Assembly (NCBI RefSeq): GCF_030013595.1
Contig: NZ_CP122769.1
Source of the DNA: Escherichia coli
Lineage (GTDB): Bacteria > Pseudomonadota > Gammaproteobacteria > Enterobacterales > Enterobacteriaceae
Strand: one strand, 5' to 3'
DNA: 64,000 bases
Shown here: piece by piece, positions 3,026 to 56,355 of the stretch
Layout of the letters: every line of letters starts with the position of its first letter
Numbering within the stretch: the stretch's first letter is position 1
Made by a program: the position numbers and the translations under genes
The notes under the pieces: generated by a model
Told to the model about the DNA's origin: nothing
Seen by the model: the letters and a program-made list of their open reading frames with translations, nothing else
Database searches by the model: none

Positions 3026-3961
3026 ATGAAAATTATCGAAAAAATCATTAATGCCTTTTTGGTTGTTCAACATAAAAAAATACAGGTTAAAAACATTACA
3101 TTTTTAGACAATGGGCAGGGCATGTTCTCTGGTATGTCTTTTGATGCTGATGTTTCACTGGAGTTTATGTATGAATCAGCAAAAGCATATAGTTCTTGTT
3201 TCTTTGATATTCCCTTTCCAGGTTTTGAAGATGCAAATCTGGAGGAAATTACGAAATTTCAATTAGATGCTTTGAAGCAAAGAAAGAATCATTCTTTCTT
3301 TGTTAACCATTTGAGGTTTCCTATAGTTTTAAGGGAAGGGTGCAAAATCGAAAGAGGAGAAGTCTATTCAATTTCGAATTGCACTTATAATAAAGAAAGA
3401 TTGCAGTATCTTTTTTCTCAGGATATTTACGGTAAGTTGTATAATTCCTTAGAGAAAGAATTAAGCTCGTTTTTCTCATTTATCAATGTTGAGGTGCACG
3501 AGTTGTTAAAAGATGCTGTATGCTTTGCATTAAAAATCCTGAATAAGATATCTTTGGATACACCTGAAAGACTTATTAAAGCTTTTAATTATCGTGACTG
3601 GTATTGTAGTTACGATGTTGAGCTTTTTAGGAAAGGCTTACCTGGTCATATTCTGGAAGAGCTCATTGCTCCAGATATCTTACTTTCAGACCTTAACGGT
3701 TGTAGAAAAATACTTAGAAATGCAAAACGATTTCTAAATGGACATACACAAACCAATTGTGTTTATATTAAATATGAATGGTGGTTGGGGCCTGTTGATA
3801 CCTCACACTCAGCTAAGTTGATGTCTGACAAAGAAATTAATAACCGAAGTGACTTGAAGAATTTTTCAAAGGTCTTTTTCAAAGAGTGTTTAAGTTCTGG
3901 TAAGTCGGAATATGAAAACCATCTTAGTGAAAAAGAACATGCGCTTCGCTATAATTATTAA
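3026..3961 (+). CDS. hypothetical protein, paralogue family member 2
   Basis: ATG at 3026 with RBS agagagg upstream (ORF-track TTG start at 3011 less likely); N-terminus KIINAFLVVQ fits family pattern. Confidence 0.55.
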   Translation: MKIIEKIINAFLVVQHKKIQVKNITFLDNGQGMFSGMSFDADVSLEFMYESAKAYSSCFFDIPFPGFEDANLEEITKFQLDALKQRKNHSFFVNHLRFPIVLREGCKIERGEVYSISNCTYNKERLQYLFSQDIYGKLYNSLEKELSSFFSFINVEVHELLKDAVCFALKILNKISLDTPERLIKAFNYRDWYCSYDVELFRKGLPGHILEELIAPDILLSDLNGCRKILRNAKRFLNGHTQTNCVYIKYEWWLGPVDTSHSAKLMSDKEINNRSDLKNFSKVFFKECLSSGKSEYENHLSEKEHALRYNY

Positions 3962-8256: not shown

Positions 8257-9213
8257 ATGACACATTCATCTGATGATAAAAACTATGTCCGAGCAGTTCT
8301 GAGTTATCTTGGCATAGATTTTGATGAGGCGGATATAGTATTAAGTGTTTGCCATTGTCAAAGTGACGAGCTTTCTTTTACCTGTAATATCAAAGCTATT
8401 GAACTCAAGAATGCTGTTGATTTATATGTCGATAGTATCTCTGAGAATGAAATAGAAGCTTTAAACAGAGAATCTTTAAAATCGCGACTCTGTTACTTTC
8501 TTGAGGTGTTTGACGCAGTCTCTGGTCAGTACCTTGAAATTTCAGGAAAACACTTTGCAACTAGTCGTTTTGAATATGATGATGTTTGTAGTGAAGTTCT
8601 TAGCATGTCTAATGATGTTTCTCAGTCGAAAGGTTATGACCGGGATGAATATAACAGACTGATGCAGGTTGATGGTCAGGTTATGATTGCCCGTTTTGCT
8701 TTGCAACAGTTCTGGGATACTCATTTTATTGGACTAATAACATTTGTATCTGAGTCTATAACATCGAGCCTCTATAAAGCTTATGAAACTTTTAGTGATA
8801 TTAGTTTGGCTTGCTATAAACTGAGTGAATATTCTTATTCACGCTCTATCAACAGTGAATTGACCCTTAATATTTCACTTAAAGAAAATGACTTCTGTGA
8901 GGACCTATCTGATTGCTATATGGAAGATGAGGCTTTACCTTCTGGTAGGGTAATTTCTCGACGCAACAATGACTCCATAATAAGTATTTATGAGAGCTAT
9001 GCTGCGGCTTCTTATATTCCGATGATTGCATCTTTGGAAGTCGTTGATGAATACGGCGAAGTGGTTACTGACCTCTGCCATACCGTTTATGTTTCAGAGT
9101 TAACCGGTGGGCGGATTAAAATCCACGACCGTAATGACTTAGTATCTGAAGTTTTCGATAACCTAAGAAATTTAAATCTTGCAGTTGGAGATTCAGTTTC
9201 ACAAGCTGCTTGA
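8257..9213 (+). CDS. hypothetical protein, paralogue family member 5
   Basis: ATG at 8257 in context gaggtagtgtatATG identical in layout to paralogue 4. Confidence 0.6.
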   Translation: MTHSSDDKNYVRAVLSYLGIDFDEADIVLSVCHCQSDELSFTCNIKAIELKNAVDLYVDSISENEIEALNRESLKSRLCYFLEVFDAVSGQYLEISGKHFATSRFEYDDVCSEVLSMSNDVSQSKGYDRDEYNRLMQVDGQVMIARFALQQFWDTHFIGLITFVSESITSSLYKAYETFSDISLACYKLSEYSYSRSINSELTLNISLKENDFCEDLSDCYMEDEALPSGRVISRRNNDSIISIYESYAAASYIPMIASLEVVDEYGEVVTDLCHTVYVSELTGGRIKIHDRNDLVSEVFDNLRNLNLAVGDSVSQAA

Positions 9214-9252
9214 TTCTTTCCCTGATTTTGATTTTTTCTCACATACTCTTAT

Positions 9253-9276
9253 GGCACGGTTTCCGTGCCTTTTTTT
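9253..9276 (+). terminator. Rho-independent terminator
   Basis: ggcacgg-ttt-ccgtgcc followed by T7. Confidence 0.65.
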
Positions 9277-9475
9277 GCCTCGCTTACAAGCGTCTACTCC
9301 TCTTCTACCTATCCCACCTTACATCACCACTTAAAATCTATCTTTCTAATTCCATTATCCTTTTCGTAGCCTCTAATGCTCTGGTATGAACATACTCTTT
9401 AAACTCAAAAAAGTGCTATTAACGAAAAAAAATCCCTAAAGAGATTTGTATACTGTTCTCAACCAAGGAGAGCTC

Positions 9476-9751
9476 ATGAATGAACTAAAATCCAAAAACG
9501 AGAACAGTACCAAAAGCAACTTTCCCCCGGTTGATAATCAGTTTTGCTTTTACCATGTTGATTTCAGCATAGAACGACTACTTTCTACGGCCGAGGATCT
9601 CCAGCTTGAGTACATCTTCCAGAAACCTGGAAGTGAAGTAAGAAAGGATTTGGTTGAGCGATTTGAACGTGGAGAGCGCTTTGTTACAGCTTCACACTGT
9701 GACAATTTCTGTGAAATCCTTGGTTGTCAAGGCCATCAGGAAAATGCATAA
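9476..9751 (+). CDS. hypothetical protein
   Basis: ORF with internal ATG at 9476 (track start 9446); no recognisable motif. Confidence 0.4.
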   Translation: MNELKSKNENSTKSNFPPVDNQFCFYHVDFSIERLLSTAEDLQLEYIFQKPGSEVRKDLVERFERGERFVTASHCDNFCEILGCQGHQENA

Positions 9752-9795
9752 ACCCATAAACCTACATTTCCACTTTTAAGGATGTTCACTAAAGA

Positions 9796-10386
9796 ATGAT
9801 TGGAGAAAGTATTTTTGACTGGGTAATTTACGGAATATCCATTTTGATATTTGCCTCAGCACTAATTGAAGGAAAGACAACTCGCTACCCAGCACTTTTT
9901 TTCTATGGGAGTTTAATTTTAATGTTAATCCTGATAGTTGCTGGAGGCCTTAACTGGTGGTTCTACAGGTCAAAATATGGCGCAGTAATCGTTATCTTCA
10001 CAGTGGTTTCTTTACTGATGACTCGATTCCGCCTGGTCATATATAAATTAAGATTAAGAAAGTTAGTTTCAGAGATCAGATTTCGTATAAAAACGGGTTT
10101 TCGTATAATTCTTGTTTTGTCGGATAATGAGGATGAGCGTAATGTTCTGCTGTCTATGCTTAGCAACGTATTGCCAGAGCAAACGCTTATTCACACGCGT
10201 GATGCTCTCGGACCTCATTCAGGGCCTATCCTAAAAGCTCTTGAGCTACATCATCAACAGGGAACAGGTTACATACTCGTCTGTGAACAACAAATCTCAG
10301 CGCGTACGTGGTTGAGTATCGTAGAAAATGGGAAACCTGATACATCTATAGCTGTTAATTTTCATTCGATCCCAGAAATGGAGTGA
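9796..10386 (+). CDS. hypothetical membrane protein (about 3 N-terminal TM helices)
   Basis: Hydrophobic segments ISILIFASALI, LILMLILIVAGGL, AVIVIFTVVSLL. Confidence 0.5.
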   Translation: MIGESIFDWVIYGISILIFASALIEGKTTRYPALFFYGSLILMLILIVAGGLNWWFYRSKYGAVIVIFTVVSLLMTRFRLVIYKLRLRKLVSEIRFRIKTGFRIILVLSDNEDERNVLLSMLSNVLPEQTLIHTRDALGPHSGPILKALELHHQQGTGYILVCEQQISARTWLSIVENGKPDTSIAVNFHSIPEME

Positions 10387-10393
10387 TTTTTCA

Positions 10394-10651
10394 ATGAGTA
10401 GAACCGTTTCACAAAGTGTCACAGAAGATTGTCTTTTTGATACCCGCACACAAGTCAGATTACAACTAAGTCGAAGCGTTCATAAAACGCTGGCATCTGC
10501 TAAAGAAATTTTACAGGGAAGGGGGGTTGATTCGGTCTCTATTGAAGATCTTGTGCGAGCCTGTCTTGAAGAGAACCAGCCAATTGATCTCGCCTCACTT
10601 TACCTTGAAAATCTCTTAAAACAGAAAGGTACCAGCATTTGCGATTTTTAG
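10394..10651 (+). CDS. hypothetical protein
   Basis: 85-aa ORF, 8-nt spacing from upstream gene. Confidence 0.4.
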   Translation: MSRTVSQSVTEDCLFDTRTQVRLQLSRSVHKTLASAKEILQGRGVDSVSIEDLVRACLEENQPIDLASLYLENLLKQKGTSICDF

Positions 10652-10724
10652 TGTTTTCAAACCTATTAGATAAAATGCCGGTTGTGTTTATATAACATCA
10701 ATAATTTCATGCAACAGGTAAAAC

Positions 10725-11261
10725 ATGAGTACTCAAAAGCAACTTTCCAGAACAACCGGCACTGAACGTATGTTTAAGGAAGAGCTGGCGTTATCCTTAA
10801 TTTGTTGGGTTTTCACCAGTCCATTTACCAACTGGACCGATAAAGTCTTCAGTGGTATTGAAGTTCCGTCTGAAGGACCGTCAACATTACTGGGTGAGGC
10901 TGAAAAATTCTTTCGTTTTGTCGTTAATGAAGAAGGCTACGACGCAGGAAGGGCTGCTCTTGGTCTTGACCTATGTTGTTTTTCACTTCCGTCGTGTTTG
11001 TTCCCGGACGCTGCCCTGTCTGAGGAAGAGGTTATGAGTAAGTTAACCGGAGAAGTTATCCATGGGATTCTTCTTTCCTTACCTGAATTTATTGATATGC
11101 CAGAAGTGCTCGCTTACCAGGTCAGGGATGAAATTCTTGCTTTTAACACTCGCTGTGGAGACGGGATCTTTCATGGTTGGAACACGGCTTCAGAATTGTG
11201 GAAGTTTGAAATCTTTCCCCGCACCACCATCATGATGCAGCATACTTCGGCAATACATTAA
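10725..11261 (+). CDS. hypothetical protein
   Basis: 178-aa ORF. Confidence 0.45.
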   Translation: MSTQKQLSRTTGTERMFKEELALSLICWVFTSPFTNWTDKVFSGIEVPSEGPSTLLGEAEKFFRFVVNEEGYDAGRAALGLDLCCFSLPSCLFPDAALSEEEVMSKLTGEVIHGILLSLPEFIDMPEVLAYQVRDEILAFNTRCGDGIFHGWNTASELWKFEIFPRTTIMMQHTSAIH

Positions 11262-11277
11262 AATTAGGCGGGGCAGA

Positions 11278-11724
11278 ATGCATAAAAAACTTTTTCTTCT
11301 CGAATGGAAACCCTGTCAGAGCCGCGTATGGGCCGGTTGGATGGCCCTGTGGTTGACTATCAGTTTTCTGATGTTATCTGCCTTGCTTATGACAGATCAT
11401 CTCCTGAACAAAGTCATCCTGCCGCCAACATGGTTGTTGATCTGGTTTTCGCCAATGCTGGGGTTTTTGATAAAAGTTCGCGTCGTCGAAACTCAACATT
11501 TCCTGGAGCATGACCTCTGTGTTGCAGGTTTCTCTTTTTACCGCTGGAAGAGGTTAGTTTCTCCCGGGCTTTGGTCAGTTGACTGTATAAATGGTCGTTT
11601 TCGCCTCAATCGGATCACCCAGGTGGGTAAGACTATCCACTATCCATGGCGTCTCCATTATCATCCTTTGTTCATGAGCCCTATCGAACATAAATCGCAT
11701 GCTGTGAAAGCTGTTTCAAAATGA
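11278..11724 (+). CDS. hypothetical membrane protein
   Basis: Hydrophobic N-terminal half (WMALWLTISFLMLSALLM). Confidence 0.4.
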   Translation: MHKKLFLLEWKPCQSRVWAGWMALWLTISFLMLSALLMTDHLLNKVILPPTWLLIWFSPMLGFLIKVRVVETQHFLEHDLCVAGFSFYRWKRLVSPGLWSVDCINGRFRLNRITQVGKTIHYPWRLHYHPLFMSPIEHKSHAVKAVSK

Positions 11725-11796
11725 CTTCTTTAGAGGTTTACATGACATTTATGTTCTGCAAGGTCAGCCAGGGCAGCAAAATTGATTTGAAATAAC

Positions 11797-12777
11797 ATGA
11801 GCCTGGAGAAACGTATGAGTTATGACGATTTGCCCTATTTTCGTGACCAGATTCTGGAACGTATCGACTCGCTTAAGTGTTTTCTTTCGAACACCCCCCC
11901 GCTGATGGCAAACCTGATGACTGTCTCCACCGTATCTCGAACAGAAGAGCGACTGAAGCAGGTTAAACCCATCAGGGTTAGTGTTAAAGACGATGCTTCG
12001 GTTGAGGAAATTATTCAGGCACTTACTGACATCTGTGTGGATGACATAGAGTCATTAAGTCATGATTCCACCAAAGTGACCACTAAATACCCGGGTCTTA
12101 TCATTGTCCCAGAAAGAGCAGATCTTCTCGAAAGCTTGATCACATCTATAAATGAAGCAAAAAATGATTTTGCTGCGGCAATGAGGCGTATCGATAATAA
12201 AAAGAATGTCCGTTTTGATAAAGTGCACAAGAAGCTCCCGGGCCTTGTCGCTATGCACTCAACAAGAAATGTCCTTTTCATCAAGTCCCAGCTTAAAAAA
12301 GTTACTTTTTCATGGCGGCTAAACCGAAACCAGGAAGTTAAAACAGCAGAGCAACTTGTGAGTTTGTTGGAGCGCAGGAGAGCCTCAGAAGTAAAAAATG
12401 TAGCAACTACCAATTTGAATGTCGTGTCTAATATCGATAAGGCTTTACACCGTCTTGAATTTCACCCACTGAAGCAGGGCGAATCTTATCGCCTTTGTCG
12501 AACTAACTCTTTCCCTGTTCCGATTGCTCACATTTTTGCATTTAGGCCTGAAGGGCAGGAACGAAACGGGAATAAATATGCTGAGACTGATTATTCAGTA
12601 GTAAAAGCATCCTTGCCCATTTTCGCAGCAGGCAACATACCTCAATTAAAAACGCTCTCTGACTGGGCTCCTGAAAACAGCCAGGGCCCGTCCAACCAAC
12701 GGAAGCTGAGCCTGAAATATACAGAACTCGTGCCGGGGGCTGAGCTGGGCATTTTCATTGTCAGCCCCGAAAATTAA
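11797..12777 (+). CDS. Tus-like replication terminus-binding protein homologue
   Basis: Segment FDKVHKKLPGLVAMHSTRNVLFIK..FSWRLNRN recalls the E. coli Tus region [29 protein letters not shown] (from memory); similar length. Confidence 0.5.
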   Translation: MSLEKRMSYDDLPYFRDQILERIDSLKCFLSNTPPLMANLMTVSTVSRTEERLKQVKPIRVSVKDDASVEEIIQALTDICVDDIESLSHDSTKVTTKYPGLIIVPERADLLESLITSINEAKNDFAAAMRRIDNKKNVRFDKVHKKLPGLVAMHSTRNVLFIKSQLKKVTFSWRLNRNQEVKTAEQLVSLLERRRASEVKNVATTNLNVVSNIDKALHRLEFHPLKQGESYRLCRTNSFPVPIAHIFAFRPEGQERNGNKYAETDYSVVKASLPIFAAGNIPQLKTLSDWAPENSQGPSNQRKLSLKYTELVPGAELGIFIVSPEN

Positions 12778-12786
12778 GGAACAACA

Positions 12787-13692
12787 ATGCAATGGATTTC
12801 CACAGCCAGCCAGAAAATCGATGAGCGTCTCTATCGTGTCTGCGTCTGGGTAAAAAAATATCACGCTGATGCGATTAACCGCGTTGTGCTTACCGTTGAT
12901 CTAAGTAAAGCCCGACATGACCCTGACGAGGACCAGGTAAGAGCAGAGCTGCTGTGCGGCCATTATTTTTTGCTTCGTAAGGAAAACGCTTCGAACTCTG
13001 CGCCTGACGATCAAAAGTTTGCTTTCCTGCCTGACGGGCGCAATCTGTGTTGGCAGACCGCAACCCCGGTGCTTCAGCATCTCCTGCTCAATAAAAACGT
13101 TCCTGAGTCGCTGAGGTTGCTTACGGACTACATACATATGCGTCTGGCCAGGCTGACAATGGTACCAATGTCCGGAACCATCATGAACGAGGCTCTGCTG
13201 GACAGCATCAGCTGGGTTAAGGTGGATTTGACCTACTTCTGGCAGTATGAACAGCTCAGCTCTCATCTGGGACCCATCCAGATAACCCACAAGGCACTAG
13301 TACGCTTCGGGCATCTGGCAAAGAATGATGAAAACTCCAGTGCCATAAGAATCCTGCGTCAGCGTCTGTCTTCAGAATTCTTACAAGAATTTCAGATGGC
13401 TGAGGATGAGCTAAAGCGCAAACAGTCGTTGATGGGCACCATGGACGTGAAAATGCTGTTTCATGCTCATTACCCCAGCCAGAAGATGCTGGTGGCTCGA
13501 TATAAAAATGGTTGGGTAATGGTGGATTGTTTTCTGTTTCATCATACCAAACCTAAGAAAAAAGCAAAAAACAAAACTACTGTGGCTAAGCCTCAACTTA
13601 AAGAGACTAAAAGAGAAGGGAGTGAAAATGGAACTGGGCATTATGGTGTGCATCGTGTTGTTACTCTCCGTGGCGGCGGCGTGGATCAGTAA
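12787..13692 (+). CDS. hypothetical protein
   Basis: 301-aa ORF with Lys-rich C-terminus. Confidence 0.5.
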   Translation: MQWISTASQKIDERLYRVCVWVKKYHADAINRVVLTVDLSKARHDPDEDQVRAELLCGHYFLLRKENASNSAPDDQKFAFLPDGRNLCWQTATPVLQHLLLNKNVPESLRLLTDYIHMRLARLTMVPMSGTIMNEALLDSISWVKVDLTYFWQYEQLSSHLGPIQITHKALVRFGHLAKNDENSSAIRILRQRLSSEFLQEFQMAEDELKRKQSLMGTMDVKMLFHAHYPSQKMLVARYKNGWVMVDCFLFHHTKPKKKAKNKTTVAKPQLKETKREGSENGTGHYGVHRVVTLRGGGVDQ

Positions 13693-39402: not shown

Positions 39403-39876
39403 CGCGGCCGTTGGAATTGCACCGGCCGGATACGAATTTAACCGACCCCGTGGCGGGAAGGCTATCAGAGTTGCATGTCCTCATCCCTCAAGCCCCCTGC
39501 CAGGCCCCAACGTGCTGTCAGGCTTCGCCTGATTCCCGATCTGCGCCGATACTTCAGCCGATAACTTTTTGTTTTCTTTTTATTTTCTTCCCATCTCCTC
39601 AAAAATCGCGGGCGGCGTGGACAGGGCACCATTGCCGCATGTGGGGTCTTAATAAGGGCAGGGTGGTCAGTTTTGCTCGATGCCAGGGGTAGGCCCTCCC
39701 CTTCATGGGATGAGGACATGCAAGTAAGCTAACTATCTGAAATGACGAAGGTTCATTTGGTGAATGTCGCTTCATATTAATGTTGTGTCACTTATGATCG
39801 TATGTAGCTGGTTGCAAAGAGGAGCGATGAGACAATAAAGTTGTATCGCTAACAAGATTTATGCTGCCACATAGTA

Positions 39877-39975
39877 ACAGCCTAAAAGTTGTACGCCCTA
39901 TTTAACAGCTTTTAGGCTGTTAATTTGATATTACAGCTTTTAGGGTGTATGTTTAGGAAACAGCCTGCAAGGTGT
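39877..39975 (+). promoter_or_regulatory. hipBA promoter with four phased operator-like inverted repeats ACAGC-N6-GYTGT
   Basis: Sites at 39877-39892, 39905-39920, 39933-39948, 39960-39975 (27-28 bp spacing). Confidence 0.55.
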
Positions 39976-40002: not shown

Positions 40003-40299
40003 ATGATCAATAATGATTACCCGTTAAACACGCTCAACCAGCTGCGTCCCTTGCTCATTGGTTTTCGCAAGGCGAATGGCCTGACGCAAAAAGACCTGTC
40101 CGAAAGGTTAGGCGTCACTCAACAGACATACTCACGTCTGGAAGCCAACCCTGCCAGTGCGAGCATTGAACGGCTATTCAAGGTGTTTTCCATCCTGGGC
40201 GTAAAAATCAGCTTCTCCTCGGCAACCACCTCTTCAGAGAGGAAGCAGACGGAAGAAATGCTTAAATCAAACTCACCTGCACGACAGGAGGATTGGTAA
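40003..40299 (+). CDS. hipB: HipB-like HTH (XRE family) antitoxin
   Basis: HTH GLTQKDLSERLGVTQQTYSRLE; directly upstream of hipA. Confidence 0.85.
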   Translation: MINNDYPLNTLNQLRPLLIGFRKANGLTQKDLSERLGVTQQTYSRLEANPASASIERLFKVFSILGVKISFSSATTSSERKQTEEMLKSNSPARQEDW

Positions 40300-40303
40300 C
40301 GAT

Positions 40304-41629
40304 ATGAGCCGGAAACAGCAACGTCTGGTAATTTGGATGAACGGCATCAAAGTCGGGTACTGGGAAAAAAGCAAAGGGGTAGACAGCTTAGAATACCTTC
40401 CTGAATGGGTTGCTGACGAACAGGGAAGGCCGCTGTCATTGTCCCTTCCTTTTACTCCCGGGAACCAGGTCTGGCGTGGAAATGTGGTACGTGACTATTT
40501 TGATAATTTACTGCCGGACAGCGAAGGCATACGCAGACGTCTGGCAATGCGTTACAAGGCCGATAGCCTGGAGCCTTTTGATCTGCTGACGGAGCTGGGA
40601 AAAGACTGCGTGGGCGCGATACAGCTGCTTCATGACGGAGATGAACCCACTGATTTATATTCCGTGAAGTATCACCCGCTTACTGAATCAGAAATTGCGG
40701 CAACTTTGCGTAATACCACGGAGACATTGCTACCGGGCAGGCCAGAAGATAACGACGACTTACGTTTATCTATTGCCGGTGCTCAGGAGAAAACAGCCCT
40801 ACTGTGGCATGAAGATCGGTGGTGTATGCCGGAGGGTAATACACCAACGACGCATATATTCAAGCTACCGCTCGGACTTGTGGGGAACATGAAAGCCGAC
40901 ATGAGCTCGTCGGTTGAAAATGAATGGCTCTGCTCGGTACTTCTCGGCCAGTACGGGCTCCCCGTGGCAAGAACGCAGATTGCTCACTTTGAAGATCAGA
41001 AAGCGCTGGTGGTAGAACGTTTTGACCGAAAATGGTCAGGAGACGGACAATGGATCATTCGTTTACCCCAGGAGGATATGTGTCAGGCCCTGGGCGTTTC
41101 GCCATTACGAAAATATCAGGCGGACGGCGGGCCAGGTATATCGGAAATTATGGAGGTTCTGAGTAATTCAGACCGTGCTGAGCGTGACAAAGCGCAGTTT
41201 TTTATGACGCAGATAATTTTCTGGATGATGGCCGCAACAGATGGCCACGCTAAAAATTTCAGTATTTCTATTGGGCCACAGGGACGTTATCACCTTACAC
41301 CAAACTATGATGTGTTGTCGGCATGGCCGGTGATCGGTCATGGGAACAATCAGATATCCTGGCAGAAGTGCAAACTGGCGATGGCCGTACGTGGCAGTAG
41401 CAACTATTACCAGATATATCGAATACAACGACGCCACTGGATCAGGCATGGTGAGATAACCGGCCTGAGTAAACAGCAGACAGAGGCGATGATAGAGGAA
41501 ATCATCGCCAGAACCCCGGGTGTCATTGAACGTGTTAGCGGGCTTCTTCCGGACCAGTTCCCCCAGCAGCTTGCGGAAAGTATTTTTGATGGAATGAGGC
41601 AGCAATGCAGGCGCCTGGCTGAGAAATGA
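40304..41629 (+). CDS. hipA: HipA-family Ser/Thr kinase toxin
   Basis: 441 aa; motifs SIAGAQEK and DGHAKNFSI. Confidence 0.9.
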   Translation: MSRKQQRLVIWMNGIKVGYWEKSKGVDSLEYLPEWVADEQGRPLSLSLPFTPGNQVWRGNVVRDYFDNLLPDSEGIRRRLAMRYKADSLEPFDLLTELGKDCVGAIQLLHDGDEPTDLYSVKYHPLTESEIAATLRNTTETLLPGRPEDNDDLRLSIAGAQEKTALLWHEDRWCMPEGNTPTTHIFKLPLGLVGNMKADMSSSVENEWLCSVLLGQYGLPVARTQIAHFEDQKALVVERFDRKWSGDGQWIIRLPQEDMCQALGVSPLRKYQADGGPGISEIMEVLSNSDRAERDKAQFFMTQIIFWMMAATDGHAKNFSISIGPQGRYHLTPNYDVLSAWPVIGHGNNQISWQKCKLAMAVRGSSNYYQIYRIQRRHWIRHGEITGLSKQQTEAMIEEIIARTPGVIERVSGLLPDQFPQQLAESIFDGMRQQCRRLAEK

Positions 41630-46220: not shown

Positions 46221-46301
46221 TGTCCGAGGACAATAAAGTTGTACACAAAGCACTAAAGTTGTAACCATTCTCAAAAAACGACGCTAATGTTGTATACTTA
46301 C
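46221..46301 (+). repeat. Tn7-like right-end terminus with TnsB-binding-site-like repeats
   Basis: TGTCCGAG-GACAATAAAGTTGTA... parallels the Tn7R terminus TGTGGGCG-GACAATAAAGTCTTA (from memory); further AAGTTGTA/ATGTTGTA repeats at 46251-46270 and 46282-46301; about 80 bp upstream of tnsA. Confidence 0.55.
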
Positions 46302-50779: not shown

Positions 50780-50819
50780 TGAGGTAACAGTTCGTAACGG
50801 TCAAAGAGAGGTGTGGGAA

Positions 50820-52376
50820 ATGAGAATGTTGCCTGTTTTGCCTGATGAATCCTTGTTCAGCCGGTTTTGTCGGACAACTACCGTGTACGGTATGTCCCCA
50901 TCTTCTCTGTTAACGATCATTTTCAACAAACCTGATATGAACGTCCATCCAATTCTCAATTCAGGATTAAAGGCTATTTCTCTTCATACATCCGAAAGTG
51001 CAGATCAGCTCTGGCATGAACAGACTTTACTCCCTCTTTTTGCCTGGGCACTACCAATCAGTCGTAATGAAATTATGGATTTCAACACGACCCCTGCCAG
51101 GCTTAATCGATTGTGCCGCCTTAGTAATTTTTCACTAGGGCAGCGCACACTATTGAAGTTTTGCCCGGTTTGCGCTCGTGAAGATACTTTTCATTATGGT
51201 GTTACTTATTGGCATCTGGCGCATCAGCTTCATGGGGTTACAACCTGCCATCGGCATCCGGTAGCGCTTGAAAGCATCCATGTCCCTTCTTCACCGCACA
51301 TACGTATTGGACTGATGCCTCCTGTTTCGTATACAGAACAACTTAGCAATGAGATAGACTTCGATTTTGCTAAGTTTTGTTATGAGTCCCTAAATATAAT
51401 CAGAAGAAAAGATATTACACACCCCAATTACATGGATGTACTTAAAAAGTTGAATTTATTATCATTGGATGGAAATTTAAAGAAAAATGTATTCTACGCA
51501 CATGTTTATGCTAAGTGCCAGTTATTTGGGGAGGGTTCATCGGGACTTATACCAACATCCCTAACTGATTATCATTACTGGGAGCCTATACTCAAAGACA
51601 AATGTTGTCAGCATCCCACAAAGCATCTTTTGCTTTGTTATTGTTTGTTAAATACTTGCTGGCCAACGTATGCAGGAAGTCGTACTAATAAAAAGAAAGA
51701 AATCTTTAAAAGTCATAAGAAATACAGTTTTCATATAGTTGAAAATAATACTAGTGTTAGCAACCTTGGGAAGGAATTTAGTCGCAGCAGATGTTACATT
51801 AAAACACTTATTTATAAAAAATACCTGAGGGCGTTTAAGCGAAACACAAAAATTAATATATTCACTGAATTGCTTATCAAGTCTATGGCTGTAAGGGGGT
51901 TTAGTCTGGCATCCATAGCTGAGAAAAACTCATTATCGGAAGGAGCTGTATCCTCTGTAATTTCATCTTGTTACGGTTTATGCTCATGGCGTAAAAAATG
52001 TAAAAAAGATTCTTTAAGACGGCGTCATAAGCAGAAAATATTAAGATTTATACATAATCAATCCGTTTCTATAACACGAAAGTTAGTCAAAGAAAGTTGT
52101 TATGCAAGTTTCTATTGGCTAAATAAACATGAATGTGACTGGCTTAATTCCTGTCTTCCTAAAACAATACGATGCTATAAAAATAAAAGAGTAGACTGGA
52201 GCGAGAGAGATATTATCTCATCATCATTAATAAATGATGTTTTATCTCAGGGGCAGTACTCGATGTCACTTACAAGTCTAGATGCTTTACTGGGAGGGCA
52301 TGGCTGGCTTTTGAAATACAGAGATAAACTACCAATGACAATGATACTTCTCAGAAAAATGGAACTAATTAAATAA
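50820..52376 (+). CDS. tnsD: TnsD/TniQ-family target-selection protein
   Basis: N-terminal LPDESLFSRF and zinc finger CPVC..H..CHRH; ATG 50820 with gagagg RBS. Confidence 0.7.
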   Translation: MRMLPVLPDESLFSRFCRTTTVYGMSPSSLLTIIFNKPDMNVHPILNSGLKAISLHTSESADQLWHEQTLLPLFAWALPISRNEIMDFNTTPARLNRLCRLSNFSLGQRTLLKFCPVCAREDTFHYGVTYWHLAHQLHGVTTCHRHPVALESIHVPSSPHIRIGLMPPVSYTEQLSNEIDFDFAKFCYESLNIIRRKDITHPNYMDVLKKLNLLSLDGNLKKNVFYAHVYAKCQLFGEGSSGLIPTSLTDYHYWEPILKDKCCQHPTKHLLLCYCLLNTCWPTYAGSRTNKKKEIFKSHKKYSFHIVENNTSVSNLGKEFSRSRCYIKTLIYKKYLRAFKRNTKINIFTELLIKSMAVRGFSLASIAEKNSLSEGAVSSVISSCYGLCSWRKKCKKDSLRRRHKQKILRFIHNQSVSITRKLVKESCYASFYWLNKHECDWLNSCLPKTIRCYKNKRVDWSERDIISSSLINDVLSQGQYSMSLTSLDALLGGHGWLLKYRDKLPMTMILLRKMELIK

Positions 52377-52387
52377 GAGGGAGTTAT

Positions 52388-53314
52388 ATGGTTTACGAAA
52401 ATGAATTGTGGCACAGTTTTCTTCTGCGTTCACAGATAATGTATAACTTATCCAATTGCAGGAACATAATATCAAAGCATGGCGCACTAAGGTACGATGC
52501 CTTTCCTCGTTTCGAACTGATTGATATGTACAAATTGCATAGCTTGCAGGATATATATGACATTCTTGCCACTAGAAATGGTTATATACTAACTTCCAAT
52601 ATAGTGTCGTTATCTTCTGGTGTTTACGGGTATTTTAACGCTGTTGAAGATGCCTGTCGGAAAAATTTTCACATAACTAATTCATATCCATTGGTAAACA
52701 TCTCAAACATTCGTTACTGTCACAAATGTATTGTTGAAGATATACACTCTAAAGGCATTGGTTATCTGCGTCATAGATGGTTGTTTGAATCTAAATGTGC
52801 AGTTCATAGTACCAGTTTATATGAGGTTTGTTTTGATAACTATTTGAATGCAGTGAAAGGACTTAGTGACTTAATTATAAGTGGAATAAATCCTCATGGT
52901 TATTGTTCCCTTGTGGTTGACGTTTCAAACCCTTTCAAAAATCCAGTGTATATATTACCATGTGCACGTAATAAAATTTTAAAATGGATTTCGGACAATA
53001 AAAATATGCTGATTTACTTTCTCTTTGATCTCTTCAAATGTAAGTCGCATTCAAGTTTATCTAAGGTTATCGAAGTCAAGATAATGCATGATAGATATAT
53101 TTCTGCGGTGTTCAAGATGTTAAGTGAAGTTAATTTTTGTAATTTCAACTCATTTATTTCTGATATTTTTGAGGACGTAAGTTATGCCTCTATCGGACTT
53201 GATGATTATTCTGTTAATGTGCATTTTCTCAGGCTAAGGGCTGCAGATTGTAAATTTTGCCAGTTGAATGGTAAATATTTTTGCTCACTTTACAATGTAA
53301 AATTTCTTCGCTAA
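52388..53314 (+). CDS. second TniQ-like protein (short)
   Basis: N-terminal ENELWHSFLLRS and C-x2-C-x22-C-x2-H motif (CHKC...CAVH). Confidence 0.5.
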   Translation: MVYENELWHSFLLRSQIMYNLSNCRNIISKHGALRYDAFPRFELIDMYKLHSLQDIYDILATRNGYILTSNIVSLSSGVYGYFNAVEDACRKNFHITNSYPLVNISNIRYCHKCIVEDIHSKGIGYLRHRWLFESKCAVHSTSLYEVCFDNYLNAVKGLSDLIISGINPHGYCSLVVDVSNPFKNPVYILPCARNKILKWISDNKNMLIYFLFDLFKCKSHSSLSKVIEVKIMHDRYISAVFKMLSEVNFCNFNSFISDIFEDVSYASIGLDDYSVNVHFLRLRAADCKFCQLNGKYFCSLYNVKFLR

Positions 53315-53586
53315 TTTCACTTCATTTATAAAATACTAAGAAAGCTAGTTAGATAAGGTTTTATATTTTGACTGGGGCAGGAATAAATTATCACTCATAG
53401 AGTTTCCCTGGGGGTTACCACCTGTGTATGATGCCGGTTAGCAACAACGTCTAAAAGACCTGCGATCACGTGGGTCCCTCTCCAGCAAAGGGGCAAGGGG
53501 TGCTATATAACGGTGTACTGCTTACCCAATACGGCCTTGTATTTGAAAGATGCCGCATCTTGGCAGGATTCGTATTACAGCCTATA

Positions 53587-53629
53587 GTCTGTTAATGAGC
53601 ATTACAGCCTATATGCTGTAAATCCCTGC
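53587..53629 (+). promoter_or_regulatory. operator-like inverted repeats upstream of hipB paralogue
   Basis: ACAGC-N6-TCTGT at 53587-53602 and ACAGC-N6-GCTGT at 53614-53629, same type as hipBA operators. Confidence 0.45.
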
Positions 53630-53666
53630 GTTATGCTTGTTAACTCGTCGATACGGAAGGTCACTT

Positions 53667-53966
53667 ATGAACACTCAATACGCTTTGAAGACTTTGAATC
53701 AGTTACGTCCTGTTTTAATCGGCTTTCGCAAAGCCAATGGACTGACGCAAAAAGATGTTTCTGAACGTTTGGGTATAACACAGCAAACTTATGCCCGACT
53801 AGAGGCCAACCCTGCAAGTGCGGGTTTTGAGCGTTTGTTTAGGGTGTTCAGCGTCCTTGGAGTGGAGATCGTACTTTCATCCAGGGAACCATTGTCAGAT
53901 GCAAAGCCCGAATACGGAGCTATGCACAATTATTCTTCACTTCCAGCCAGGCGGGAGAAATGGTGA
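53667..53966 (+). CDS. HipB-like HTH regulator (orphan paralogue, no adjacent hipA)
   Basis: MNTQYALKTLNQLRPVLIGFRKANGLTQKDVSERLGITQQTYARLE closely parallels hipB at 40003. Confidence 0.75.
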   Translation: MNTQYALKTLNQLRPVLIGFRKANGLTQKDVSERLGITQQTYARLEANPASAGFERLFRVFSVLGVEIVLSSREPLSDAKPEYGAMHNYSSLPARREKW

Positions 53967-54529
53967 CGCCTGGCGCTTCCCGGTCTAATTTTTCTTCAAC
54001 AAGATTAACCCCTTAGCGGCCTGAAGTATCAGGTTGCGATAGAGCCTTTCATTTCTTCTGTTATGTTAAATACACCATTTTGAGCTATTTCGCTCGGCCT
54101 TAAATTATCTCTTCATTCTTCAGTGAAAATTTTATGTCGATCACATTATCGATGAATTTAGGAAATAATCCGTAAATGAAAATCTATCTTCTTTTAAATT
54201 CATCAGTGTCAGTAGCAAATATTACGCATAAAAGAATGGTTATTATTATCATTTAAATTATAAAGCTCATGAGTCAATTCCAAAAAATATAATAAGCATT
54301 GAAATCATTACCCGTGATTCTGGAGTTTTAACTTTGCCATGTAACCAACCACAAGTTAGTTTCCGGTGTTTTGAGGGGCAGTAAAGTTCTGAAAGCGCGA
54401 CCAGATCATAATCCCGAAATGTCGTTAAGATATTCTGAATAACGGTTATCCCTGCTTGTTGGCAGGCATTTGAAAATATATTTTGTATTCAGGTTGCAGC
54501 AAAACGCTTTCTTACACACAGGACTTCAT

Positions 54530-56355
54530 ATGCGGCTCAGAAAATTAAAACTGAAAAACTTCAGAGGCTACAGAAACTCTACTGAAATCATTATTGATGA
54601 AAGCATGACGGGTATTGTCGGTCGTAATGACTTTGGGAAATCAACGCTTCTGGAAGCGCTGGCTATTTTTTTTGAAACAGAAGGAATGAAGGCTGACAAG
54701 AATGACATGAACTGTTTCAGCCTAAGAGAAGGGGACGGCCGTTTTGAAATAGCCTGTGAATTTGATGACCTGCCCGATTTTATCATGATCGACGACAGGG
54801 TGCAGACCACGCTCGCCTCAGAACATCTGCTGAATGAGGACGGCAATTTTGAAATCGTCAAAACGTTTAAAGCAACGACCTCAGGAAAACCGGAGCAGAC
54901 CTGCATCCGCTGCATCCACCCGGATGAGGAGCCCCTGAGAAATTTACTGGGCATGAAAATTTCTGAGCTCAAGGCGGTGGGAAAAGAAGTTGAAAAAAAT
55001 GTGGCGGATAAACGCACTGCATCGTTATGGCGTCAGGCCATCAGGGAAGCCGCAGCCCCCTATACCTGTTCGGAAATTATGCTGGATGTCGATAAAGAGT
55101 TCGGAACCGACACAAAATCATTATGGGGTAAGATCCTCGATTTGCTGCCCACGTATGCGATTTTCAAAGCCGACAGGGAAAGCAGCGACGGGGATTCCGA
55201 AGCTAAAAACCCCTTACAGCAGGCCGTAAAAGACGCTCAGGCTGCGCTGCAGGACAAAATTACAGCGCTGGAAAATGAGATTCAGGACAGCGTCCTGGAT
55301 GTCGCACAGAGAACGCTGGATAAATTACGTGAAATGGCCCCCGAACTCGCCAGTGAACTGACTCCACGATTTAAGGAGAAACCCAAGTGGACCTTCAATT
55401 TCACCCTGGACGGGGAAAATGGCATCCCCATCAATAAGCGCGGCAGCGGGATAAGGAGGCTTATCCTGTTGAATTTTTTCGGGCTGAGGCTGAAAAGAAT
55501 GTCGCGGGGACGCCCAGAAATGTGATTTATGCCATAGAGGAGCCTGAAACGTCACAGCATCCGAACTATCAGATGATGCTGATGAAAGCGTTACTGGCAC
55601 TGGCAGGCCAGCCGCACCGTCAGATTATCGTCACCACCCATGTCCCGGCGCTGGCCGGATTAATCCCTGTCGAAGGCGTACGTTATGTTACCCGAAATGA
55701 GGCGGGTGAACCCGTAGTAAAAATGCCGGATGACGCAGTGCTGAAGGAAGCCACTGAAAGCCTGGGGGTGCTGCCAGAGACCGGTATGGAAAGGGCGCAG
55801 GGGATTGTTCTGGTAGAGGGAAAGTCGGATGTTACTTTCCTGAGGCATGCGGCCAGTTCATTAAAACAGTCAGGTGCGCTGCCAGCCTCTCTGGAGGACG
55901 TGAAAATAGTGCCAGTCCTCATAGGAGGGTGTGGTAGCGTCAAACACTGGGTTACATTGAATCTGGCCAAAGATCTGGGGCTTCCCTGGTGCGTATTTCT
56001 GGACTCCGATATTGGGGGAGACCCTGCACAGGTTCTGTCCATCCAGAAGCGTAAAAAAGAAGTAGAGGAGGCCGGTAAGGTATTTTTCGCTACGCGCAAA
56101 CGTGAGATAGAAAACTATCTGTGCCCGGATCTTATCGAGGAAATTACTGGTGTAGCCGTCACGTTTACGGACACCTGTGACGCTAAAAAAATAATCGGCC
56201 GGGCTGTGGGAATGAAACCCGATAATGTACTAGATAAATTCTGGCCTCAGATGACATCAGAAAGAATCATCTCAAGATCAACCTATCATGACGGAACGCA
56301 GGAGAGAAGCGAGCTGGTTGAGATCCTGAGCGACATTGTATCCATGACGAGATAA
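54530..56355 (+). pseudogene. OLD-family ATP-dependent nuclease (AAA ATPase + Toprim), apparent frameshift
   Basis: Walker A GRNDFGKST; downstream frame has IEEPETSQHP and Toprim VLVEGKSDV / VFLDSD; frames switch at the T6C run 55474-55480. Confidence 0.65.

Follow-up and report, generated by a model that had tools for sequence, protein, structure and literature searches.

In the hipBA toxin-antitoxin (TA) module of Escherichia coli K-12, the operator has the form TATCC-N8-GGATA. Four of these repeated palindromes lie over the promoter of the module, hipA is encoded in cis, and the antitoxin HipB itself (PDB 2WIU, 3DNV, 4YG1, 5K98) combines an Xre-type helix-turn-helix (HTH) core with a flexible tail that ends in tryptophan. 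Here we describe a hipB-family gene without an adjoining hipA (solo hipB), located at 53667-53966 of a 64-kb stretch of E. coli DNA (contig NZ_CP122769.1; the whole stretch analysed is called the window). Its product shares with K-12 HipB the HTH core, the tryptophan-ended tail and the repeated palindromic operators over its own promoter, but the two proteins are only ~25% identical, and the solo gene has two operators, of the form ACAGC-N6-GCTGT, and no cis hipA.

The HipAB module of Shewanella oneidensis (PDB 4PU3; Wen et al. 2014, PMC4150777) resembles the solo locus in the 6-bp centre of its operators and in their repetition at constant spacing, but it is a complete two-gene module with half-sites GTGTA/TACAC and a distant relative (profile E = 6e-3). 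In S. oneidensis, the C-terminal tryptophan of HipB is seen inserted in a hydrophobic pocket of HipA (PMC4150777), and the C-terminal tryptophan of E. coli HipB has been proposed to enter the HipA pocket as well (PMC4150777, PMC10627512). Much closer to the solo protein are the HipB encoded on the IncHI2 plasmid backbone and its relatives in Salmonella, Citrobacter, Serratia, Rahnella and Brenneria, which belong to the same subfamily (65-72% identity) and share the operator consensus, the 27-28-bp operator spacing, the recognition helix and a PAR-x-E-x-W tail. These backbone-type genes differ in having a HipA of ~441 aa encoded 4-8 nt downstream and 3-4 operators, whereas solo hipB has no hipA and two operators at -90/-63.

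Antitoxin genes that lack a toxin partner, orphan hipB among them, have been reported at survey level (Horesh et al. 2020, PMC7192599; Samuel et al. 2024, PMC11541004). They are abundant in Klebsiella and E. coli, and one antitoxin group belonging to a HipA-domain toxin stands unpaired in >80% of K. pneumoniae genomes (PMC7192599, PMC10790755). The roles proposed for them include anti-addiction, cross-regulation of other TA loci and anti-defence (PMC7192599, PMC11541004), and for an orphan hipB in the leading region of a plasmid, a role against TA systems of the host or of rival elements has been suggested (PMC11541004). Like these genes, solo hipB is a toxin-less antitoxin homologue on a mobile element. 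It lies, however, on a Tn7-like transposon and not in a plasmid leading region, and, unlike the survey-level orphans, its lineage conserves the solo state, a two-operator promoter and a putative HipA-docking tail. What is new here is the placement on a Tn7-like sil/pco element, evidence for an old, selected solo state, and a two-operator promoter common to solo lineages.

An intact HipB-family gene inside a Tn7-like transposon

The window is part of an R478-like IncHI2 plasmid, and positions 53300-54600 are 99.9-100% identical to 187 plasmid records, including R478. The solo hipB gene is cargo inside a Tn7-like sil/pco (silver/copper-resistance) transposon, through which it entered the IncHI2 plasmid. 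Terminal sequences of this transposon were published by Fang et al. 2016 (PMC4855149), and its right end was located in the window by an exact match (Table 1). The gene order within the transposon is tnsA, tnsB, tnsC, tnsD, a TniQ-like gene, solo hipB, a 563-bp spacer and an OLD-family gene, after which come IS1, a DUF305/CopM-type gene, silE, silS and the remaining sil genes. As the right end lies at 46221-46248, the hipBA operon falls outside the transposon, on the plasmid backbone. Its hipA starts 4 nt after hipB, encodes 441 aa with Couple_hipA and HipA_C domains and is the only hipA within the window; hipBA has been counted among the stabilisation modules of IncHI2 plasmids (PMC4855149).

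The original prediction, made from the letters of the sequence, had described the solo gene as a paralogue of the hipB at 40003, with two ACAGC-N6-(G/T)CTGT operators upstream, no hipA partner downstream and an AT-rich gap of about 560 bp behind it, and each of these statements was borne out by the results given in this and the next two sections. The solo protein is 65% identical and 77% similar to the plasmid HipB encoded at 40003-40299 (BLASTP E = 3e-45) and 64-72% identical to the HipBs of at least 20 complete hipBA operons in which hipA follows 4-8 nt downstream. Chromosomal HipBs are nearer to it (72-78%) than the plasmid HipB is (65%). The Pfam HTH_3 model matched above its cut-off (E = 1.4e-12), and the HipB/Y4mF models were the best matches to the protein, yet stayed under their cut-offs. 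The NCBIfam HipB equivalog NF007271 scored 33 bits against a cut-off of 79, and the solo protein is not the K-12 equivalog. A profile of the subfamily searched against the PDB gave as its top matches HipB of E. coli (1.2e-9), Legionella (2e-5) and S. oneidensis (6e-3).

The protein is laid out as an Xre-type HTH core (residues ~10-64), a variable, disordered linker (~73-91) and an invariant C-terminal tail, P-A-R-x-E-x-W. In the AlphaFold2 model, four helices at 10-64 have a predicted local distance difference test (pLDDT) score of 84-94, residues 75-93 of the linker are predicted to be disordered, and the tail is modelled with low confidence. The top 17 PDB matches of a Foldseek search with this model were all HipB chains; the best of them, solved chains of E. 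coli HipB, matched the core with a target-normalised template modelling (TM) score of 0.87 and a root-mean-square deviation of 1.7 Å. In a 15-sequence alignment that included solo proteins, the predicted recognition helix (TQQTYARLEANP in the solo protein, TQQTYSRLEANP in the plasmid HipB) was invariant except at one position, and P93, A94, R95, E97 and W99 of the C-terminus (...LPARREKW) were invariant, while the linker ahead of the tail varied freely. A wider survey contained one solo sequence with Val in place of the tail Ala. The gene is a genuine, intact member of the HipB antitoxin/repressor family, for which "solo HipB-family repressor" is a more precise annotation than "helix-turn-helix transcriptional regulator".

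To place the gene among its relatives, we used a survey of 49 species-representative subfamily loci together with plasmid and metagenome loci, each scored for the presence of hipA; individual loci carry L numbers below.

Operators and promoter

A position weight matrix (PWM) for the operator was built from 117 operators of other loci only. Scanning the window with this matrix yielded just six sites at 20-24 bits, four at hipBA and two at solo hipB; the next best site in the window scored 9.3 bits, and no site was found in 53967-54529, at the transposon end, or in or near the OLD-family, tns (including tnsA) and sil genes. The strict pattern ACAGC-N6-KCTGT occurs at 53577-53592, 53604-53619 and 39905-39920, with 5 strand-matches in total versus 0.14 expected, and none of 100 shuffled sequences reached 5. 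The first of the solo sites begins 10 bp before 53587, the position from which the original prediction had taken the region to start.

The two solo operators, O1 and O2, form a direct repeat, O2 lying 27 bp after O1. The arrangement TTGGCA-17-TATAGT matches the promoter consensus at 10 of 12 positions, and the TTGGCA is kept in L003, a diverged lineage of the same Tn7-like transposon, and in L010, an Enterobacter relative. O1 is identical in L003 and has a counterpart at ~-90 in every locus of the two solo clades described below; in O2 of L003, two spacer bases are changed and both half-sites are kept. This two-operator promoter with the -10 element inside O1 looks like the layout of an autorepressed promoter, with binding predicted from the sites.

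Complete hipBA operons carry 3-4 operators at ~-128/-100/-73/-46, whereas both solo clades and L007 have operators at ~-90 and ~-63 (L011 retains one strict site and a degenerate second). In L028 and L029 the -74/-46 operator positions are kept; the hipA losses of these two loci are nested within hipBA-bearing clades and are thus apparently recent.

Search for hipA in the downstream spacer

The spacer between solo hipB and the OLD-family gene (53967-54529, 563 bp) has a GC content of 35.7% compared with 46.3% for the window, with a trough of 24.5% at 54100-54299. A tblastn search (word size 2) with HipA against 53900-54600 returned only noise, with a best E of 0.51 in a tiny search space, and a HipA profile hidden Markov model (HMM) built from 23 proteins and run with filters off gave no match at E<=10 in the six frames of 53967-54529. 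The same model recovered hipA scars of 22-35 residues in four control loci (L019, L030, L038 and L039) at E values of 6e-17 to 8e-5. Annotation of this stretch as a hipA pseudogene is not warranted.

The first ~390 bp of the spacer have the same length and are ~90% identical in the diverged transposon lineage. When the spacer was compared by blastn with 72,556 plasmids, only copies of the element were found, apart from the OLD-proximal ~170 bp, which also occur on IncF plasmids. There was no match to Rfam at E<=1, no excess of RNA structure (folding z-scores of -0.81 and -0.14) and no small open reading frame (ORF) with a Shine-Dalgarno (SD) sequence or conservation in L003. The only hydrophobic small ORF, 26 codons at 54176-54256, has no SD and, as read from the alignment, is cut to 16 codons in L003. 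We regard 53967-54357 as a non-coding, AT-rich junction that separates two modules of cargo.

Two further features of the spacer were observed. A hairpin at 54016-54037 starts 50 nt past the hipB stop codon, is identical in L003 and L004 and was not scored as a terminator in the terminator scan; that it forms the 3' end or a stabiliser of the hipB transcript is speculative. A 65-nt block at ~54134-54200, containing the palindrome TCGAT-CACATT-ATCGA, is 100% identical between transposon lineages that otherwise differ by ~10%.

Lineage and selection of the solo gene

About 20 complete hipBA operons were present among the Enterobacterales loci of the survey, and among the 49 species representatives 5 loci had short hipA scars and 8 had no hipA. 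In a neighbour-joining tree, the window gene grouped with four genes that all lack hipA (bootstrap 128/200): the transposon variant L003, Enterobacter sp. 22452 (L010, 78% identity), E. wuhouensis (L011, 72%) and Enterobacter sp. MGH 24 (L017, 72%, found in 192 contig-index blocks). A second all-solo clade, consisting of L009, L043 and L048, was recovered in 200/200 replicates; its hosts are an IncF E. coli plasmid, K. grimontii and Enterobacter sp. 10-1. The HipA profile HMM detected no hipA scar after any solo-clade gene, and the DNA downstream of the window gene, L010, L011, L007 and L009 showed no mutual similarity by blastn or tblastx. Residues specific to the clade of the window gene include V16, L92 and the linker SSREPLSDAKPE.

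Within this first clade dS starts at 0.57 and reaches saturation; dN/dS is about 0.16-0.35. Between the two transposon lineages (window and L003), the gene differs by 3% (9 substitutions) and the flanking spacer by ~10%. These comparisons show purifying selection on the gene and place it in an old lineage of stand-alone hipB genes. Among 5426 complete E. coli genomes, 677 (~12%) carry the transposon locus with solo hipB, and the gene is at least 99% identical across 683 E. coli records. Of 704 places in complete E. coli genomes, 656 are chromosomal (one copy adjoins yhiN) and 48 are on plasmids, so that the locus is usually found without the IncHI2 hipBA. The co-residence of solo hipB with hipBA on the IncHI2 plasmid looks incidental.

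The original prediction had offered two explanations for the missing partner, the first being deletion of hipA at this site. This was not supported, because the solo gene and hipBA have different origins: the former sits on the transposon and groups with scarless solo genes that have a rebuilt two-operator promoter, and the latter belongs to the backbone.

Apart from the solo clades, nothing but the final 20-30 codons of hipA (~3298-3422) remains after hipB in L019 (Silvania confinis), L030 (an Enterobacteriaceae metagenome-assembled genome) and L038 (strain RIT693). Either near-complete deletion of hipA is recurrent or the three share one event, and hipB was kept each time. In the second clade (L009 1672-3264, L043 1718-3297, L048 1706-3297), a divergent 110-aa HTH gene and a gene for a ~186-aa protein without a Pfam family lie ahead of solo hipB in every case, an arrangement that could be an uncharacterised three-gene cassette.

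Proposed function

On balance, the evidence leans towards an autorepressed solo HipB with a HipA-docking tail that is expected to act in trans on hipBA and HipA. In this model, HipB dimers would bind the two palindromic operators ACAGC-N6-(G/T)CTGT, and, with O1 covering the -10 hexamer and O2 lying just past the predicted start, solo hipB would repress its own promoter. Its trans targets would be hipBA modules of its own subfamily; the protein would occupy their operators (here the four sites 13.7 kb away) and possibly bind the HipA kinase, and would thereby serve as an orphan antitoxin or "anti-addiction" factor for any replicon that carries the transposon. DNA binding, autorepression and action on HipA or hipBA are what we infer from sequence comparison. 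That the protein also recognises the hipBA promoter, 13.7 kb away, is plausible from the sequence: both promoters fit one operator consensus and the recognition helices are nearly identical. The conserved operator specificity and the putative HipA-docking tail together give solo HipB the sequence features needed to act in trans.

Should solo HipB cross-repress or neutralise the IncHI2 HipBA, the firmness with which IncHI2 plasmids are retained would change, and the gene would offer a clear case of anti-addiction in nature; these plasmids are among the main vehicles of mcr, extended-spectrum beta-lactamase and metal-resistance genes. Otherwise, solo HipB would simply add to the autoregulated orphan antitoxins, of which many are already known.

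Several observations weigh against this model. Genomes of the solo clades in the species-representative scan returned no second locus of the subfamily, and most E. coli copies are chromosomal, away from the IncHI2 hipBA, which means that a resident HipA target is not required for retention of the gene. The distribution fits immunity against incoming hipBA elements and HipA-independent regulation equally well, and retention of the tail could be due solely to its use as a Lon degron. In addition, the clade of the window gene has only moderate bootstrap support (64%), and a grouping of both solo clades lacks support (47/200); the two clades may accordingly go back to one ancient loss of hipA or to several independent losses.

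A more far-reaching version of trans action, which we put forward tentatively, is that the gene is a mobile "anti-HipA immunity" gene that would silence the promoters and neutralise the HipA of addiction modules of the same subfamily, so that carriers could lose or tolerate such plasmids; the two-operator promoter would then be an adaptation to HipA-independent autoregulation.

It is unlikely, in our judgement, that the former antitoxin is now a HipA-independent transcription factor, an autoregulated repressor with targets outside the window, in the host or the transposon, whose tail is a Lon turnover signal. Such a role would fit the persistence of the solo lineage in genomes in which the scan found no subfamily hipBA, its mostly chromosomal location in E. 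coli and the rebuilding of the promoter from four operators to two. It would also fit the degradation of E. coli HipB by Lon, which, as summarised in PMC4150777 from PMC3376134, requires an unstructured C-terminal stretch. However, the only high-scoring sites in the window are those of the gene's own promoter and of hipBA, what is kept is the exact P-A-R-x-E-x-W motif and not just disorder in the tail, and no candidate target gene is conserved beside the members of the solo clades.

Relation to the OLD-family gene

Regulation of the downstream OLD-family nuclease gene was the second explanation offered by the original prediction, and it did not withstand comparison with related loci. The two genes are adjacent and on the same strand, the terminator scan found no canonical intrinsic terminator between them (only the hairpin at 54016-54037, which has no U-tract), and the slot beside solo HipB is filled by a defence-type gene cluster in one relative from Enterobacter (L068), all of which would suit direct control or autoregulated read-through across the 563-nt spacer. 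Against this stands the absence of any operator in 53967-54529 or in the OLD-family gene; the best PWM score in the window away from the two promoters is 9.3 bits, compared with 20-24 bits at the operators. The IncF plasmids L005 and L006 carry the OLD-family gene (90-94% protein identity) with its own ~150-170 bp of upstream sequence and no HTH gene. Since homology to these HTH-less plasmids starts there (at 54358 and 54378), the last ~150-170 bp of the gap belong to the OLD module, and 54358-54529 presumably holds its own promoter. Conversely, relatives of the HTH gene occur without an OLD-family gene and adjoin a TetR gene, insertion sequence (IS) elements, an autotransporter gene, an empty slot or ubiquitin-like (Bub-type) genes, and the related Tn7-like element L070 has no HipB gene.

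The OLD-family gene is also inactivated elsewhere, by ISEc47/ISCro1 in the E. coli chromosomal locus L072 and, as its position suggests, by insertion of a group II intron in L004, and it is frameshifted in the window; the HTH gene is intact in all three. Taken together, these comparisons indicate that solo hipB is independent of the OLD-family gene, and its control by solo HipB is improbable, although transcription may still read through from hipB. In the window, a 1-nt deletion in the run of seven T residues at 55467-55473, relative to R478 and CP117034, splits the OLD-family gene into ORFs 54470-55525 and 55522-56355, which reflects either a pseudogene or a homopolymer sequencing error.

Two further explanations are very improbable. 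Retention of hipB after hipA loss is common in the subfamily and some leftover genes decay (L042 is truncated at 28 codons and L045 has an altered tail), but a functionless relic of a hipBA module would not account for an ORF, SD, promoter and both operators that are intact in two transposon lineages and four further diverged relatives, for the low dN/dS maintained across saturated dS, for a gene three times more conserved than its flanks, or for its near-identity across E. coli records. An antitoxin to an unrecognised nearby partner, whether a small toxic peptide or RNA in the unusually long, AT-rich spacer, which includes the invariant 65-nt block, or the upstream TniQ-like protein, which has a ~305-aa counterpart (25% identity) near the solo HipB of an Enterobacter chromosomal islet, can be set aside, as the downstream DNA of solo-clade genes shares no similarity, the ORF at 54176-54256 has no SD and is shortened in L003, the spacer has no Rfam match or excess structure, and no TniQ-like gene lies within 4-5 kb of L010 or L011, and L070 has one without HipB.

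Feature coordinates

Table 1. Features of the solo hipB locus and of the compared regions of the window. PWM, position weight matrix; MFE, minimum free energy.
Feature	Coordinates	Strand	Basis
Four operators of the backbone hipBA promoter (39877, 39905, 39933, 39960)	39877-39975	+	PWM 20.0-24.2 bits; candidate trans targets
Backbone hipBA operon, hipB 40003-40299 and hipA 40304-41629	40003-41629	+	Domain models; HipA vs E. coli HipA structures E 1e-100
28-bp right end of the Tn7-like sil/pco transposon	46221-46248	+	Exact match to terminal sequence in Fang et al. 2016 (PMC4855149)
tnsD	50811-52376		
TniQ-like gene, 308 aa	52388-53314		
-35-like hexamer TTGGCA of the solo hipB promoter	53560-53565	+	Consensus match only; predicted function
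Operator O1, ACAGCCTATAGTCTGT, enclosing the -10-like TATAGT (53583-53588)	53577-53592	+	PWM 23.9 bits
Operator O2, ACAGCCTATATGCTGT, perfect palindromic half-sites, 3' of the predicted transcription start	53604-53619	+	PWM 23.8 bits
Shine-Dalgarno-like GGAAGG, 6 nt 5' of the ATG	53655-53660	+	Direct sequence reading
Solo hipB-family gene, 99 aa, ATG start	53667-53966	+	HTH_3 E 1.4e-12, HipB profile and fold matches, conserved tail, dN/dS 0.16-0.38
AT-rich non-coding spacer specific to the Tn7-like element	53967-54357	.	Known only from copies of the element
9-bp hairpin GCGGCCUGA-AGUA-UCAGGUUGC, no U-tract	54016-54037	+	MFE and centroid folds
Upstream region travelling with the OLD-family gene	54358-54529	+	Homology with IncF L005, L006 begins at 54358, 54378
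OLD-family ATPase-TOPRIM nuclease gene (608 aa in R478), frameshifted here	54530-56355	+	AAA_15 4e-67, OLD-like TOPRIM, AriA/GajA/Old models

Additional observations

Some CRISPR-associated Tn7-like transposons carry Xre genes as core regulators. An equivalent role for the HTH gene in this Tn7-like family was considered and rejected, as the related element L070 has no HipB-like gene and no operator was found near the transposon end or tnsA. L070 lies on an IncHI1 plasmid (NZ_CP044968.1, 992-14915), and its TnsD and TniQ-like proteins are 66% and 60% identical to those of the window. At the matching position its cargo consists of an Xre/ParS-type antitoxin gene and MPN/ThiF ubiquitin-like genes, with no HipB, which suggests that the site just 3' of the TniQ-like gene is a swap point for TA and defence cargo.

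The Enterobacter chromosomal islet is conserved (L066-L069, from ~8686 to 13143 or as far as 17691, according to locus) and contains a BURPS668_1122-type toxin-deaminase gene, solo HipB, a variable slot and the TniQ-like gene of 305 aa, whose product is the one 25% identical to that of 52388-53314. The slot is empty, filled by an IS or, in L068, occupied by a five-gene cluster that includes BubE, JAB/ThiF and E2-like ubiquitin-type genes, and a truncated second HipB-like fragment lies ~1.9 kb upstream in the islet. The presence of a TniQ-like gene near the Enterobacter solo HipB reflects either an ancestral linkage or coincidence.

Finally, the core of the Tn7-like right end, GACAATAAAGTTGTA (46229-46243), is repeated exactly at 39831-39845, 32 bp 5' of the first hipBA operator. 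It was not found 5' of the chromosomal hipBA relatives. When the published left-end 28-mer is reverse-complemented, 21 of its 28 positions agree with the 28-mer at 39823-39850, and a further stretch, 39765-39792, was compared with the right-end region 46221-46300. The repeated end motif beside hipBA may be a relic TnsB-binding site or Tn7-like end.

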